Counted from the first letter of the stretch, positions 6,411-11,802 are shown. The stretch: DNA of 21,139 nucleotides from Candidatus Micrarchaeota archaeon (GCA_037444485.1 JBBIMI010000014.1:1-21139), one strand, 5' to 3'. The notes: generated by a model from the sequence alone, not told the origin. Made by a program: numbers and translations.

Positions 6411-6749
6411 TAGGCGACGAAGAGGAAAAAAGCATTTAATGAAAATTAATGAAGGAAATAAATATGAAGGCAATGAAGGAAATAATCGTTTACGAAAGCA
6501 ATGAAAGAAAAAGTGTTTAATAATTGTTTCTACATAAAAAAAGAATGGATGCGGGGAATGCAAATAAATCAGTAAATAAAATAAATCAGTAAATAAAAAA
6601 TTAATTTAATTCAATAAAAATTCAATAAATTCAATAAATTTTTCAGTTGAATTAACTGCTTTTTTTTAGTCAACTAGTTTTTTGTGTGAGAAGAGAATTC
6701 GTGTAAGAAAAAAATTGGAAAAAATTTGTGGTTAGAAGGGAATCTTAAA

Positions 6750-8000
6750 GTGGCTGGAAAGAAAAAAAAGAAAATCAAGGAAATCAAGGTCAAGAAATTC
6801 AAACCAACACCAGCAGCGTCAGCTGCAGCTCCAGCCGCAGCTCAAGCCGCAGCTTCGGCAGCGCCCGCTCCTACAACAACGCTTGCTGCAAGGCGTGCTG
6901 CAAAGCGTGCTACAAGGCGTGCTGCAGGGCAGGCGGCAGGGCGCGCACCAGCGCTTGCAGCGAAACAAGATTTAAGCAAAATCGAGTCTACAGCTGAAGT
7001 AGTCGTGAGTGACAAGCTCATTAACCAAATCATCGGCCAAGAAAAAGCGGTTGACATCATCAAGAAAGCCGCTTCACAGAAACGCAACGTACTCTTGGTT
7101 GGTTATCCTGGAACCGGAAAATCGCTTATTGCGCAAGCGATGAGCGAGTTGATGCCTGTCGAAGAACTCCAAGACGTCCTAGTTTACCCGAACCCCGTCG
7201 AGGAAAACAACCCGAAAATCGAGGTACTCAAAGCAGGCGAGGGACGCAAGCGCGTCGAGCAAGAACGTGCGCGCAAACAACTCGGCGCGTCAAACATTAG
7301 CCTTGTTTACGTCTTCTTTATTTTTATTGCCGCATTCTTTCTCTTGTCGTTCGGACGCTCGCAATTAGGTGACGTGATTACAGCAGCAATGCTTATAGGC
7401 TTGTTTGTAGTCGGCGGCGTAGTGTTGCTCGGCGCGCAGTTAATGCGCGGACGCTTCATGCAAGAAGCAGACGGGGTAAGGCTCTTAATAGACAATTCAG
7501 ACAAGAAAACAGCGCCCTTCGTTGAAGCAACAGGCGCGCGCGCAGGCGCGTTGCTCGGCGATTGCAGGCACGACCCGTTTCAAAGTTTTAAAGATGCTGG
7601 CGCCTTATTCTTCCAAAATAAGCATTCTAAAGGCTCTAAAAAGAAAAACAAATCTAAATATAGCTTTTTGAAGTTAGATTCTGTTTGGCGTAAATACGCT
7701 AAGAAATACCCCGAGTTGATTGAACGAAACTCCGACGGTTACCAGGCGATAGTACTGCCTAAAAGCGAGGAACTTTTCGTGCTCGGTTTGAAGAATGGGC
7801 AGGCAGTCGCGAGTCGGGTGTTAGTCATAAACCGCAGACCGTACGACGGCGAGATTGTGGAGGTCAGAGCGGGCGCAAGAAAACTCGAAACAACCCCAGA
7901 ACACGCATTCATAATCAAGAACCGCGACAAACCCGCGCGTAACGTCAAGAAAGGCGATGTTTTAAGCATTTTAAGAAAAACTGGTTTTTCCGCAGCCTGA
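6750..8000 (+). CDS. lonB: LonB protease N-terminal fragment (extein to 7583) fused to an N-terminal split intein (7584-7997, 138 aa)
   Basis: QIIGQEKA, Walker A GYPGTGKS, two TM helices, ATGARAGALLGDCRHDPFQ. Then intein Ser1 (SFKD...), block B TTPEHAF, ARNVKKGDVL and stop TGA at 7998-8000. Start is GTG 6750 (alternative TTG 6726). Confidence 0.92.
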   Translation: MAGKKKKKIKEIKVKKFKPTPAASAAAPAAAQAAASAAPAPTTTLAARRAAKRATRRAAGQAAGRAPALAAKQDLSKIESTAEVVVSDKLINQIIGQEKAVDIIKKAASQKRNVLLVGYPGTGKSLIAQAMSELMPVEELQDVLVYPNPVEENNPKIEVLKAGEGRKRVEQERARKQLGASNISLVYVFFIFIAAFFLLSFGRSQLGDVITAAMLIGLFVVGGVVLLGAQLMRGRFMQEADGVRLLIDNSDKKTAPFVEATGARAGALLGDCRHDPFQSFKDAGALFFQNKHSKGSKKKNKSKYSFLKLDSVWRKYAKKYPELIERNSDGYQAIVLPKSEELFVLGLKNGQAVASRVLVINRRPYDGEIVEVRAGARKLETTPEHAFIIKNRDKPARNVKKGDVLSILRKTGFSAA

Positions 8001-8041
8001 TGCATCGTCACTTCATACCTTTTGTTCGAGAAAAAAAATTT

Positions 8042-8075
8042 TTCACCGGCATGGTGGCTGCCGCAAGTTTTTAAA
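8042..8075 (+). promoter_or_regulatory. Candidate TATA promoter for the endonuclease gene (TTCACCGGCA-N12-CAAGTTTTTAAA)
   Basis: TTTTTAAA at 8068-8075 lies about 25 nt upstream of ATG 8099. The same bipartite motif recurs at 10602-10635. Confidence 0.6.
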
Positions 8076-8111
8076 TCAATTTTTCGTCCTAATAAGTCAT
8101 GAACATCATCG

Positions 8112-9146
8112 ATGTTGAAAGCTGTTTTGAAGACATTTTCAGTCGAAGAACAAGAGTCCGCGCAGCAGTATTTCGCTTATCAAAAGTTGAAGAATGAAAA
8201 TCCCGAACGGGGTTACAAACGGTTGGCGAAAGCGCTAGGCGTGAATAAAACTAAAACGCGCGCTTGGAAACAATGGAATTCAAAACCTATCGGCGTAAAA
8301 ACGGTTGAAGAACTGCAAAAAGCAGGCGTCCTGCCTTTTTGTTTTGAAGACGAGAAAGCACCGATAATTGCGAGAATTTTCGGCACTCTATACGGCGACG
8401 GCGGGGTTGACGCGAATTTGAACAACGTTTTCTTCGGTTCAGGCGACCTTGAAGACATCGAACTGTGGAAGCGGGATTTGCTGACTGTTTTTCCTTTTGC
8501 AGAGCGAAACTTGAGTTTGGTCAAGAGCGGAGAGTACGGCGACGGAAATTGCTTGCGTTGCACCAACAGGATGGTAATCCGATTTTTTGTTGCTTTGAAA
8601 GCGCCGTTAGGAAGCAAGATCATACGCGAATATCAGCTTCCAGAATGGGTTAAACAAGCGCCAAACGATTTGACCGCCTTTTTTCTAGACGGTTTTCTAG
8701 CTTGCGAGGTTGGCACTCCGCAGTTCTATCACGACCGCAGGAACAATTCCGAATACCTGTATAACTTCAGTTTCAACTTAAGCAAGTGGGAAGCGCTCGA
8801 AGAAAGTCACTTGCTTTTCTTGTACGACTTGAAGCGCTTGTGCTCCAAAATAGGGGTGAAAACCCATGCCAAGCCGCGCAAGGACGTTCATTTGAAGACC
8901 GAACGAAAAGACGGCAGGACGTCGTACTCGTACCGCGTTCACTTTTGCACTTCATTGGACAACGTGCTCTTGTTCGACTCTTTATTTCCGCTGACATACG
9001 CGAAAAAGAAAAAACAAAACCTAGCCCGAGAAATAATCAAGTCCGTAAGACACCACGAACTTCTGCAACGGCCAGTTAACGCCCTTACCGCCGGACGCTT
9101 TAACGCAATAATTAAATTCCATAAAACCAACATTAATACCGCGTGA
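8112..9146 (+). CDS. Free-standing intein-type (DOD) LAGLIDADG homing endonuclease with N-terminal HTH
   Basis: HTH-like [28 protein letters not shown] motifs [13 protein letters not shown] and [10 protein letters not shown]. Located between the two intein halves. The original start may be ATG 8099 with a +1 shift at ~8120. Confidence 0.88.
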
Positions 9147-9196
9147 AAAATAAATTTTCCGCCGACTGTTTCAAGCATCTGTTGGGCGTAACTAAA

Positions 9197-10594
9197 ATGA
9201 AAAAAAGAGAAAAAAAATCGAAGCAGGAATTCAAGGTTGCAGGCGTTAAAGTTTCCCAAGTGGCAACCCGCAAGCACAAGGGCTGGGTTTACAACGTAAC
9301 TACGGAAACCGGCAACTTGTTCGCGAACGGCATTCTGGTTCACAACAGCGGGGGTCTTGGAACTCCCGCGTACTTGCGCATCGAGCCGGGCTTCGTGCAC
9401 AAAGCGAACAAAGGCGTTTTGTTTATCGACGAAGTCAGCACTCTCTCGCCCAAATCCCAGCAGGAACTGCTCACCGCAATGCAGGAAAAAAAGTACGCGA
9501 TTACGGGCCAAAGCGAGTTGTCAAGCGGCGCGATGGTGCGCAGCGACCCCGTTCCCTGCGACTTCGTCCTAGTCGCAGCCGGTAATTACAAGGACATTCA
9601 GCGCATGCACCCGGCGTTGCGCAACCGCATTCGCGGTTACGGTTACGAGGTTTACATGGAAGAATCAATGCCCGATTCGCCTGAAAACCGCTTGAAAATA
9701 ATTCAATTCATCGCCCAGGAAGTCAAGAAAGACGGAAAAATCCCGCACTTCGACCGCAGTGCGGTCGAAGAAGTAATCAAGGAAGCGAGAAAGCGTTCGG
9801 GAAGAAAAAACAAGCTCACGCTCAAACTCCGCGAACTCGGCGGCCTCGTCCGCGCAGCCGGCGACCTCGCCCGCGAGCGCGGCGCGAAGCTCGTCACGCG
9901 CGAGCACGTGCTTGCGGCGAAGAAACTCGCGCGCACGCTCGAACAACAGGTGGCTCAGCAGCTTATTGACGTGCGGAAGGATTACCAGATTTTCTTGACT
10001 AAAGGCGCGGCCGTCGGCAAAGTCAACGGCTTGGCCGTCATGGGCGATTCGGGTGTTATTATGCCCATCGTAGCGGAAGTCGCGCCTGCTGCTTCACGCG
10101 AAGAGGGGAAGATAATAGCAACCGGCAAGCTTGGTGAGATCGCGCGCGAAGCAGTCGAGAACGTCAGCGCGATAATCAAGCGACATACTGGAAAAGACAC
10201 TTCACGCTTCGATTTCCACATCCAATTTCTTCAAACCTACGAAGGTGGCGTAGAGGGAGACAGTGCAAGCATTTCGGTCGTAACCGCGGTAATCAGCGCG
10301 CTCGAAAACGTTCCAGTCTTACAAAACGTTGCGATGACTGGCTCGCTTTCGGTAAGAGGCGAGGTGCTTCCCGTAGGCGGAATCACACAAAAGATTGAAG
10401 CGGCAATTGATGCGGGGCTAGAGAGCGTGATCATCCCCTTCACGAACAAGGATGATGTAGTTCTTCCGTCAGAACAACAAAAAGTCATTAAAATCTTGCC
10501 TGCAAAAAACCTTGCAGACGTGCTTGAGTACGCTTTGAAAGAAAGCGCTAAAAAGCGAGAACTCATTTCGAAAATTCGGGCAGAAATCGCATAA
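9197..10594 (+). CDS. lonB: C-terminal split intein (9197-9346, 50 aa) fused to LonB C-terminal fragment (Walker B and protease domain)
   Basis: Intein blocks [23 protein letters not shown], then extein SGGLGTP (Ser+1 at 9347), [24 protein letters not shown], catalytic EGDSAS and GGITQK. Alternative start GTG 9143 overlaps the endonuclease stop. Confidence 0.93.
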
Positions 10595-10635: not shown

Positions 10636-10675
10636 CGCATTTCCAGTGAATACTTTGTCTATCGTGGTGTTTAAT

Positions 10676-11802
10676 ATGTCGAGAGCTGGCATCGAATGCT
10701 TGGATTTTGAATCTCTTTTCCCCAAAACTTGTTATTCCGGCTACCCTTTGCTTTTGCAGGCTCTTGACGATAAGTTGCTTGTCGAATTCCGCACGAAATA
10801 TCCCAATGGCAAAGACAAGTCTGAACGGTTCCAACCGCGTTCTGCTTTGCTTCCGCGCAGCATATGCTTGTCGAATGAATTAATTGAAATGCTAGGCGCG
10901 TATCAAGGCGATGGTCAGACTTCGACCGACTCCAAGAGCTATCAAGCCATTCGATTCGCAAATTCCTCTCCCGCGCTTGTAAAAACCTTTTTGAACTTCC
11001 TGCGCATTTTTGAAATAACTCCCAGCGAAGTTAAAGCTGAAGTAATCGCTTCAACAGCATTGCGCGAGCAAGAATCTGAAAAGTCATTGGCGGCATATTG
11101 GAGTAGCATAACTTGAATACCCCTCGAGAATTTTTACAAATGCCGCTGGAATCCAGCGAAGTATTCCAACTCGCATTGCGTTCCCCGCGGGGCGCTTGCT
11201 TTAATCTACGGAAATTCAAGCTTCCGCCTAGCGTTTGACGCGCTATTCAACGAAGTCAAAAAACGTGCTTTGCGTGATGCGCCATCACCGCCGCATTTTT
11301 ACGCGGTTGGATAGCTGCAGACGGTTGTTTTTACTACTCTGGCGCTTTACGTCAACTTATTCTTGCTGCTAAGGAGTCTGAAGATAGAACCTACGCACAT
11401 CAGCTATTTAAAAAGCTGGAAATTCAACCAAGCAAAGATGCTCTTCGCGCTGGAAAAGAAGCAGTCAATATAACCGGCTACACTAATATGAAAGTAATTG
11501 CGGATCTTAACCTCTGTCACTTGCACCCTGACAAACGACAAAAGTTTCAAACTGCTTTTCAAGCCTATCGGGGACCTTCATACCGCAAGGGAGAAGGCAA
11601 AAACCGAGTTAAGGAGTTGCTTGAAAACAACTCAAGAACAGTTACGCAACTCGCAAGTTTGCTCGAACGAAAGCCCAATGCAATCCGTGCACATTTGAGA
11701 GCTCTAGAGAAAGACGGAATCGTTTATCGTACAGAAACAATCCAAACAGCTAGAACTGGACGCTACGCTGAATGCTGGCGGCTTATTAATCCCGTAATTT
11801 AA
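10676..11802 (+). pseudogene. Two-motif LAGLIDADG protein with C-terminal winged HTH, disrupted
   Basis: Motif 1 LIEMLGAYQGDG, FANSSPALV and YWSSIT*IP (in-frame TGA 11114-11116). After a frameshift near 11280 come motif 2 AAFLRGWIAADG and an HTH TVTQLASLLERKPNAIRAHLRALEKDGIV. Confidence 0.85.

Follow-up and report, generated by a model that had tools for sequence, protein, structure and literature searches.

A lonB gene fractured by a split intein, probably trans-spliced, around a free-standing LAGLIDADG endonuclease gene in a Micrarchaeota archaeon

How is a LonB protease made when its gene is divided between two reading frames and an endonuclease gene lies between the pieces? This question is raised by the lonB locus of a Candidatus Micrarchaeota archaeon (GCA_037444485.1). 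To our knowledge, the natural split inteins of cellular organisms are essentially those of cyanobacterial DnaE and Nanoarchaeum PolB. The window, that is, the whole stretch of DNA analyzed (JBBIMI010000014.1:1-21139; 21,139 nt), carries three genes on the plus strand, at 6750-8000, 8112-9146, and 9197-10594, which form a fractured gene as defined by Dassa et al. (2009). The layout is that of a naturally split intein, in which the intein N-half (IntN) and C-half (IntC) are encoded in separate genes with their own stop and start, and each half is fused to an extein. From the sequences compared, we estimate a probability of roughly 0.85 that this intein arose by fission at both endonuclease borders and that its halves are trans-spliced; LonB is very probably joined after translation.

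Gene 1 (6750-8000), delimited by its open frame, Pfam matches, and relatives' starts, encodes the LonB N-extein fused to IntN. The open frame extends from 6690 to 8000 and ends with TGA at 7998-8000. The listed start is TTG 6726. GTG 6750 is the likely start, because the resulting MAGKKKK... resembles the MAKKK/MARK of relatives. The N-extein (6750-7583, 278 aa) ends in ...HDPFQ (7569-7583), is 51-72% identical to relatives' N-exteins, and contains Walker A GYPGTGKS (7101-7124) and two hydrophobic, predicted membrane segments (7296-7352 and 7383-7442); Pfam AAA-type matches cover residues 94-151. IntN (7584-7997, 138 aa) was assigned by alignment, profile, and fold model. It has Ser1 (codon 7584-7586) and block B TPEH (7893-7904), carries a lysine-rich insert absent from most relatives, and is free of cysteine. 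In the 31 aligned IntN sequences, the Thr and His of the block B TxxH are invariant, and residue 1 is Ser in 27 and Cys in 4. The profile of this alignment matched solved inteins (2jmz, E 1.4e-8). For an AF2 model of IntN only (pLDDT 77.1), the best Foldseek matches were archaeal inteins (4e2t, TM 0.65, rmsd 2.4) at E values of about 1e-3, none of them at or below 0.001. The Pfam Intein_splicing model (PF14890) scored 21 bits on IntN, below its cut-off of 35.8.

Gene 3 (9197-10594, ATG to TAA) lies in a different frame from genes 1 and 2 and encodes IntC and the LonB C-extein. The ATG at 9197 is the start we favor, and most relatives' IntC starts align with it in a 34-IntC alignment; the alternative GTG at 9143 overlaps the gene 2 stop and would give a C-half of 68 aa. 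IntC (9197-9346, 50 aa), assigned by alignment and profile, has block F VYNVTT (9287-9304) and block G ...LVHN (9335-9346), and lacks cysteine. The block F/G residues Y, N, TT, and G and the terminal Asn are invariant in 34/34 aligned IntC sequences, as is Ser+1, and the penultimate residue is His in 27/35. The IntC profile matched the NrdJ-1 split intein (8ubs, 0.0021) and the Nanoarchaeum equitans (Neq) PolB IntC, NEQ528 (5oxx_B, E 0.022). Intein_splicing aligned to IntC at model positions 110-155 of 155 with 22.6 bits, also under the cut-off. As judged from the sequence, this is a class-1 intein, with Ser1, TxxH, blocks F and G, terminal Asn, and Ser+1 all present. The C-extein (9347-10591, 415 aa; delimited by Pfam and relatives) begins with the Ser+1 of SGGLGTP (9347-9367) and contains Walker B VLFIDE (9416-9433) and the Lon_C protease motif GDSAS (10256-10270). 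Pfam recognized Lon_C (1.5e-31) and LonB_AAA-LID (3.6e-11), with AAA-type matches on both LonB pieces. The C-extein of the window is 68-80% identical to those of split genomes and 69-77% identical to those of intein-free genomes. The archaeal LonB architecture, namely AAA+ with a membrane insertion, LonB LID, and Lon_C Ser-Lys protease domain, is complete across the two pieces.

The original prediction had placed the LonB break at DPFQ/SGGLGTP, which is correct to the base. Its intein halves, an IntN of 138 aa with Ser1 and TPEH followed by a stop and an IntC of 50 aa running from VYNVTT to VHN before Ser, agree with these coordinates. The exteins it held to be intact, with a sum of about 693 aa, measure 278 and 415 aa, that is, 693 aa. 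It had also put gene 3 in a different frame; this holds, with the refinement that gene 2 is read in the frame of gene 1, so the shift concerns gene 3 only.

The separate endonuclease ORF expected between the halves is intact. Gene 2 (8112-9146, ATG to TGA) encodes a LAGLIDADG homing endonuclease of 344 aa, as assigned by fold and homology. Its two LAGLIDADG motifs both end in an acidic residue and are separated by about 100 residues: motif 1, LYGDGG, at 8388-8405 (residues 93-98), and motif 2 at 8685-8714 (residues 192-201). At the N terminus, about 80 aa form a helical extension. The AF2 model (pLDDT 92.4) had its best Foldseek matches with I-Tsp061I (4e-7), the TliVMA intein endonuclease, E-DreI, I-DmoI, PI-SceI, and PI-PfuI. 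By sequence, the family is divergent; Pfam returned no family for gene 2 even at E 10, a PDB sequence search gave no match, and a PF14528 search of the window's genome missed this endonuclease. Gene 2 is 53% identical to the free-standing copy of a related genome (G016) and 31-32% identical to the LAGLIDADG domains of contiguous LonB inteins of Thermococcales/Euryarchaeota. Its alignment with the endonuclease domain nested in the contiguous LonB intein of one relative (G035) is end to end, spanning residues 5-320 (35% identity, E 3e-53). The endonuclease is probably still active, since its ORF is intact, the motif 1 Asp is invariant, and most of the 19 homologues in the alignment retain the motif 2 Glu. 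A frameshifted LAGLIDADG gene is situated immediately downstream of the split lonB locus.

The two spacers, anticipated as about 100 nt with a TATA box and about 50 nt, are 111 nt (8001-8111, between genes 1 and 2) and 50 nt (9147-9196, between genes 2 and 3). Genes 1 and 2, although in the same frame, are separated by two TGA codons (7998 and 8100-8102). Spacer 1 holds the A/T-rich TATA-like word TTTTTAAAT (8068-8076), about 40 nt 5' of the gene 2 ATG, a candidate promoter of gene 2. It has no counterpart in the G035 contiguous intein, in which IntN passes directly into the endonuclease domain. In spacer 2, the A/T-rich AAAATAAATTTT (9147-9158) is a candidate promoter of gene 3. A TATA-like word occurs 25-55 nt 5' of the IntC start in 19/35 C-pieces, as counted with a loose pattern and no control.

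A survey of 68 genomes of the window's order (Micrarchaeota-like) found lonB split in 29, interrupted at the same site by a contiguous intein in 5, and intein-free in 31; no LonB was found in the remaining 3. Both halves were located in 25 of the split genomes. They are adjacent in 4, distant on one contig in 3 (by 90 kb in G051, where they lie on opposite strands, by 29 kb in G004, and by 22 kb in G002), and on different contigs in 14, with at least 2.2 kb past the N piece free of a C piece; in the other 4, one half is too close to a contig end to judge. This makes at least 17 genomes with dispersed halves. The three-ORF layout was sought in related genomes, as the original prediction proposed, and recovered in G060:C47, L053, L059, L060, and L064. 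G043 has a contiguous mini-intein (822-aa frame) in which the region matching window IntN residues 29-131 adjoins the region matching IntC residues 10-50; IntN and IntC thus make up one whole intein. Same-genus comparisons gave dN/dS values of 0.10-0.22 for IntN and 0.05-0.14 for IntC, with dS of the pairs at 0.5-1.1, near saturation, which suggests purifying selection on both halves. On this sequence comparison, the split is no one-off lesion but an inherited state under selection, because it occurs in 29/68 genomes, is dispersed in at least 17, and shows low dN/dS. Chance was considered as the origin of the split layout and rejected as implausible, given that a further 28 genomes of the order have the same halves.

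The original prediction had named an intact lonB elsewhere, combined with a lack of trans-splicing, as a finding that would count against it. None was found in the 95%-complete genome with N- and C-extein queries; the former returned the window copy only, and the latter a Lon_C-only protein on contig C25. Trans-splicing is strongly backed by the recurrence of the split, the dispersal of the halves, the retention of splicing residues, purifying selection, and the lack of a second LonB in these searches.

Three other explanations of the split layout were weighed. A sequencing or assembly error, or recoding by double TGA read-through and a frameshift, would leave one contiguous cis-spliced precursor; the frame common to genes 1 and 2 and the overlap of the gene 2 stop with a GTG in the gene 3 frame would fit such a precursor. 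Recoding would require two read-throughs plus one frameshift, and an Rfam search of the window returned no intron and no recoding element. Contiguous relatives have no counterpart of the 111-nt spacer, and other genomes break at the same domain borders, many with halves kilobases apart. An independent assembler also gave the identical sequence: a Logan contig (10,244 nt, depth 23), a re-assembly of the probable source run, spans 7400-9600 with 0 differences. As the data are the same, this agreement excludes an assembler artefact only. Taken together, an error or recoding is hardly credible. Decay of a contiguous LonB intein by stops and a frameshift, which would make lonB a pseudogene in a reduced genome, is very improbable. 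It accords with gene loss in small symbiotic archaea, with the frameshifted LAGLIDADG gene directly downstream, and with the decayed endonuclease of G063, reduced to an 81-aa remnant. Against it stands the intactness of both exteins, on which the original prediction had already set decay or a single indel aside. They are full length, and their conservation equals that in relatives with an unsplit lonB; moreover, every piece starts and stops with codons of its own, no other LonB was found in the genome, and the design is kept in 29/68 genomes, including dispersed halves under purifying selection.

It is also conceivable, although distinctly unlikely, that the intein halves are a mere dimerization module that holds the LonB pieces together without a peptide bond. 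Intein-derived domains described as assembling a fragmented ribonucleotide reductase offer a precedent (PMC3045599), and both halves of the present intein are basic and carry lineage-specific insertions. Non-covalent docking needs no Ser/Cys1, no Thr and His of TxxH, no terminal Asn, and no Ser+1, yet the 31 IntN and 34 IntC sequences aligned retain every one of them.

If the halves are trans-spliced, the locus would work as follows. The three genes keep the original order of N-extein plus IntN, endonuclease, and IntC plus C-extein, and the two LonB polypeptides would be synthesized separately, with gene 3 relying either on transcription from the A/T-rich promoter-like element in front of it or on translational coupling at the GTGA overlap. 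IntN and IntC would associate into a HINT fold. Splicing would then proceed through an N-O acyl shift at Ser1, attack by Ser+1, cyclization of the terminal Asn, and an O-N shift. The predicted product is a 693-aa LonB in which the Walker A/membrane anchor of the N piece is peptide-bonded to the Walker B/LID/protease of the C piece. DnaE-type split inteins pair an acidic IntN with a basic IntC, whereas both halves here have a basic net charge (IntN +16, IntC +8); hence, their association may be slow, or dependent on the exteins or the membrane. The endonuclease would cut intein-free lonB alleles, and the IntN-endonuclease-IntC cassette may home as a unit.

The history of the split is a separate matter. 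Fission of one bifunctional intein seems to lie behind it rather than invasion by a foreign endonuclease, given the end-to-end match between the free endonuclease and the in-frame domain of a relative's LonB intein. Invasion of a mini-intein or of an already split intein by a free-standing endonuclease, which concerns history only, is rather doubtful. It is the model of Dassa et al. (2009) for marine fractured genes, as given in the main text (PMC2677866), and contiguous mini-inteins do occur at the LonB site (G043 and G040). The collinearity and homology of the free endonuclease with the in-frame LonB-intein domain extend over its full length, N-terminal extension included, and the G017 endonuclease is still fused to IntN; both observations speak against invasion. 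Under fission, the window would represent an intermediate stage, with the contiguous bifunctional intein before it and, after it, the prevailing form in the order, a dispersed split gene without an endonuclease. The proposed series leads from the contiguous intein to an endonuclease fused to IntN (G017, broken at the IntC border only), to three genes as in the window, to a stage in which the C piece has moved away and the N piece keeps the free endonuclease (G016, with the C piece on another contig), and to dispersed halves without endonuclease. More tentatively, in Micrarchaeota and Iainarchaeota the LonB locus may record the birth of split inteins by fission, with a cassette that may still home and with dozens of split inteins of use as tools. 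If so, the three-gene cassette may convert an intact lonB to a split gene in one step, and dozens of natural split inteins, presumably mesophilic and many of them cysteine-free with Ser1/Ser+1, would be available for protein ligation.

Among known systems, the split PolB of Nanoarchaeum equitans (NEQ068/NEQ528; 5oxx, 5oxz) is similar in being a naturally split intein in a housekeeping gene of an archaeal DPANN member, and many relatives of the window likewise have dispersed halves and no endonuclease. N. equitans is a hyperthermophile, and its split intein is, as far as we know, a single case. The host protein and insertion site differ, and the window's order, unlike Neq PolB, shows stages from contiguous to dispersed. 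The cyanobacterial DnaE inteins (Ssp, Npu) resemble the LonB intein in being clade-wide and vertically kept in an essential gene with halves far apart, and their canonical split site is the endonuclease insertion point. They are bacterial and have Cys1/Cys+1 and charge-complementary halves. The LonB intein differs from them in its Ser1/Ser+1, its two basic halves, and its surviving endonuclease-bearing intermediates.

The original prediction gave the site as that of the contiguous Lon intein of Pyrococcus. In Thermococcus, the genus compared here, two MAG loci have a contiguous LonB intein at this site (L065 and L066; DPFQ/CFSG..., single frame of 1118-1146 aa). In Thermococcales and other Euryarchaeota, contiguous LonB inteins occupy this conserved AAA+ site (DPFQ/...N/SGGLGTP) and have a homologous block F/G; unlike the window, with its three genes and Ser1, they are single-frame and cis-splicing with Cys1. 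Ten LonB inteins are listed in Novikova et al. (2016; PMC4760082). In agreement with the original prediction, full-text literature searches found no description of a split archaeal Lon intein.

The fractured genes from marine metagenomes, as presented in the main text of Dassa et al. (2009; PMC2677866), share with the window a split enzyme gene whose halves lie in order and orientation at one locus, an endonuclease ORF between them, and short spacers that may hold control elements. Their hosts are DNA synthesis/repair genes from uncultured, largely phage-like sources, their proposed origin is invasion, and their endonucleases are GIY-YIG or Vsr-like, LAGLIDADG being absent from that text. In the window, by contrast, the host gene encodes LonB protease and belongs to a cellular archaeal lineage; the LAGLIDADG protein is a homologue of the domain nested in the intein itself, which makes fission the likely origin. 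The IntC length is near theirs (50 vs. 33-54 aa), and IntN is longer (138 vs. 88-105 aa).

A split intein underlies a housekeeping membrane protease across an archaeal order in which 29/68 genomes are split. The window represents the three-gene stage, with the intein's own LAGLIDADG domain now a separate gene; the choice between fission and invasion as the origin of split inteins therefore becomes directly testable. It also raises the question of how a membrane-anchored AAA+ hexamer is assembled from halves that need prior ligation. The practical interest lies in the Ser1/Ser+1, cysteine-free halves. [quoted passage not shown] The intein of the window resembles the CL, CLm, LCGC14, and PolB16 OarG inteins described there in having Ser1, Ser+1, and no cysteine in either half; those four are characterized biochemically, and the present one is known from sequence alone. 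Within the split LonB intein family, 17/31 IntN and 33/35 IntC sequences are free of cysteine.

The lonB locus of the window comprises three genes on the plus strand. The open frame of gene 1 spans 6690-8000 (+) and ends in TGA; the gene probably starts at GTG 6750, giving MAGKKK..., because this resembles the MAKKK/MARK starts of relatives. It encodes a 278-aa LonB N-extein that contains Walker A (7101-7124) and two hydrophobic segments (7296-7352, 7383-7442) and ends in ...HDPFQ. The N-extein is followed by the 138-aa intein N-half (IntN; 7584-7997), whose first residue is Ser and whose TPEH motif lies at 7893-7904, and then by the TGA. A 111-nt spacer, with a TATA-like TTTTTAAAT at 8068-8076 (+) and a second in-frame TGA at 8100, separates gene 1 from gene 2 (344 aa; 8112-9146, +), which uses the frame of gene 1. 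After a further 50 nt, gene 3 runs from ATG 9197 to 10594 (+) in a frame that differs from that of genes 1 and 2; GTG 9143, which overlaps the gene 2 stop, is an alternative start. Gene 3 begins with the 50-aa intein C-half (IntC), which ends in ...VHN directly before SGGLGTP. The 415-aa LonB C-extein follows, containing Walker B, the LID and the Lon_C protease domain (Pfam). The three-ORF layout, the two intein halves and the 693-aa LonB (278 + 415) claimed in the original prediction agree with these frames and coordinates. Two minor features of gene 1 were observed. The LonB N terminus (6834-6960) has a low-complexity tail rich in Ala/Pro/Thr. IntN carries a lysine-rich insert (NKHSKGSKKKNKSK; 7629-7658) that is absent from most of the 31 aligned IntN; an insert of other sequence and of similar or greater length occurs at the same point only in the IntN of genomes G059 and G060 (loci L136 and L151).

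The intein nature of the halves was evaluated by profile and structure searches. Both window halves score under the cut-off of the Pfam intein model. A profile built from 31 IntN matched solved inteins, the best being the KlbA intein 2jmz (E 1.4e-8). In the structure search, the predicted IntN model (pLDDT 77) most resembled archaeal inteins, with E-values of only ~1e-3, and gave a TM of 0.65 (rmsd 2.4 Å) against the Pho RadA intein. A profile of 34 IntC matched the NrdJ-1 split intein and the Nanoarchaeum PolB IntC. Residue 1 of the aligned IntN is Ser in 27 of 31 and Cys in 4, and all 31 keep both the Thr and the His of TxxH; the 34 aligned IntC all share the terminal Asn, Ser+1 and the core of block F. 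In G043, whose mini-intein is contiguous, the segment that matches window IntN 29-131 is immediately followed by the one matching IntC 10-50; hence, the window halves sum to one complete intein. The halves of the DnaE split intein are charge-complementary, whereas those of the window are both basic (net charge +16 for IntN and +8 for IntC). Thr at intein position 1 is very unusual. The contiguous LonB intein of G035 (L153, G035:C7) and the two-piece intein of G017 (L152, G017:C38) start with Thr (TFWPYS... and TFFPST...) and end in SN and KN, respectively, each followed by S.

Gene 2 as a single sequence had no Pfam match (E up to 10) and no PDB sequence match, and a profile of aligned homologues gave a weak match only (7qsu, 0.0085). 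Its identity as a LAGLIDADG enzyme is settled at the level of the predicted model by the fold search. The model (pLDDT 92.4) has the fold of a two-motif LAGLIDADG enzyme, and its top structural matches were I-Tsp061I, the TliVMA intein endonuclease, I-DmoI, PI-SceI, and PI-PfuI. Acidic residues are present in both LAGLIDADG motifs. PF14528 (LAGLIDADG_3) matched nine places in the 0.96-Mb genome of the window (contigs C42, C12, C2, and C6). Gene 2 is not among these nine and is more divergent than they are, since the PF14528 search misses it. Two of the matches belong to long ORFs of 781 and 1180 aa, which are probably further intein-bearing genes.

Several explanations other than a split intein at work were weighed. 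An assembler artefact is ruled out, since a Logan contig (depth 23) from the probable source run matched 7400-9600 with 0 differences, this re-assembly being from the probable source sample and not independent data; Logan contigs of three DNA runs, all from one study, were compared, and the other two gave no coverage. An intron removed at the RNA level has no support, as the Rfam scan of the whole window found no family. In the window's genome (0.96 Mb, 58 contigs, 95% complete), no second LonB was found with the C-extein or N-extein query. The only other Lon-related sequence found was a protein of at least 713 aa on contig C25 (L002, G000:C25:8741-11217, -), which matched the C-extein weakly; it has a Lon_C-type protease domain only (E 1.7e-8), with no AAA+ module, and was rejected as a second LonB. 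Neither LonB piece alone would be a working AAA+ protease, because Walker A and Walker B lie on opposite sides of the break. Split and unsplit genomes do not differ in their C-extein identity to the window. Same-genus dN/dS (Nei-Gojobori, custom script) was 0.10-0.22 for IntN and 0.05-0.14 for IntC; these values are rough because dS was 0.5-1.1, and distant pairs, with saturated dS, were dropped. A TATA-like word lies upstream of 19/35 IntC starts, a hint only, from a loose pattern without shuffled control. The feature of the window is real: it is a split intein in a fractured gene. Judged from sequence, it is predicted to be a functional trans-splicing intein, with a probability of about 0.85.

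The distribution of split LonB was surveyed with the C and N pieces as queries against each of the 68 genomes of the order, after which the frames in the fetched loci were read. LonB is intein-free in 31 genomes (one frame, ~620-720 aa). A contiguous intein occupies the same site in five: G035 and G067 with endonuclease, G043 and G040 as mini-inteins, and G042 cut by a contig end. LonB is split in 29, with both halves found in 25, the C half only in G044, and the N half only in G015, G038, and G046. Neither query found LonB in three genomes (G028, G056, and G064). The halves are adjacent in 4 of the 25 genomes with both, that of the window included. G060 has the three-gene layout of the window, G017 still has the endonuclease fused to IntN, and G063 retains an 81-aa endonuclease remnant. 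In three others, the halves are far apart on one contig (90 kb on opposite strands in G051, 29 kb in G004, 22 kb in G002). The remaining 18 have them on different contigs; in 14 of these, the N piece is followed by 2.2 kb or more in which no C piece lies, and in four (G023, G020, G053, and G059) a half lies near a contig end, so that separation cannot be judged. As read in these loci, split LonB is a lineage trait of the order. Among the best 80 of 430 relatives, from which the picture beyond the order was drawn, the three-gene order recurs on Iainarchaeota-like contigs (L053, L059, L060, and L064), and Thermococcus contigs carry a contiguous intein exactly between DPFQ and SGGLGTP, with N as its last residue. 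The three-ORF layout sought in related genomes is thus present in G060 and these four contigs.

The origin of the three-gene state was considered in terms of fission of an intein with a nested endonuclease or invasion by a foreign endonuclease gene. The contiguous LonB intein of G035 is 497 aa long, and its residues 130-437 align with residues 5-320 of the free endonuclease (35% identity, E 3e-53), which aligns likewise with other nested LonB-intein domains. One domain border is broken in G017 and both in the window and G060; in G016, the C piece has moved away and the endonuclease is kept beside the N piece; in G063, the endonuclease has decayed. These alignments and states argue for fission of a bifunctional intein. 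By contrast, the main text of a study of marine fractured genes explains them by invasion of a foreign endonuclease, of the GIY-YIG or Vsr-like type, and LAGLIDADG is absent from that text (PMC2677866). The split state was further placed on a C-extein tree (FastTree only; 103 non-identical rows, with identical duplicates and C-exteins <380 aa or running off a locus left out), in which 34/100 inner forks were unsupported. On this tree, the split state is clustered, with whole clades split, and needs at least eight changes on well-supported branches; in some cases, e.g. G063 and L050, a split allele is the close sister of an intein-free one. This is consistent with vertical inheritance together with occasional gains or losses, for which homing of the whole cassette is a speculative route.

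The original prediction knew of no described split intein in an archaeal Lon, and full-text searches of the literature likewise yielded no published account of one in LonB or in Micrarchaeota. The 10 LonB inteins listed by Novikova et al. (2016; PMC4760082) are all in Euryarchaeota. The window adds a three-gene stage in which the LAGLIDADG gene stands free, together with an intein half pair with Ser1/Ser+1 and no cysteine.

In six loci (L131, L134, L138, L139, L141, and L142, from G020, G008, G018, G004, G002, and G011), which belong to three genera and have dispersed halves, a LonB-like AAA+ paralogue (~50% identity to C-extein residues 4-214) lies upstream of the N piece on the same strand and stops ~2 kb short of the frame of the N piece. 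The C-piece search found this paralogue in most genomes of the order, in frames of ~470-620 aa, and did not find it in the window's own genome. The Micrarchaeota contig L086 (JAJZKW010000003.1) carries a single-frame LonB of 1476 aa with a second break in its N-extein match (query 4-51, then 51-207, ~1.1 kb apart), suggesting a putative second intein at another LonB site.

The neighbours of lonB in the window are ordinary housekeeping genes, encoding prolyl-tRNA synthetase, a metallo-beta-lactamase-fold protein, an ArsR-type regulator, CorA, CTP synthase, and two Na+/H+ exchangers. Directly 3' of lonB lies a second free-standing LAGLIDADG gene (10646-11560, +) broken by frameshifts. One half-domain, with LGAYQGDG, lies in the frame of 10646-11116, and the other (FLRGWIAADGC) is in a different frame at ~11287-11439; both match PF14528 weakly. 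The loci fetched from relatives showed no homologue of this gene. A 208-aa ORF (1231-1857, -) located ~5 kb upstream of lonB encodes a DDE transposase domain (PF13610, E 1.4e-6) and may be the relic of an insertion sequence.
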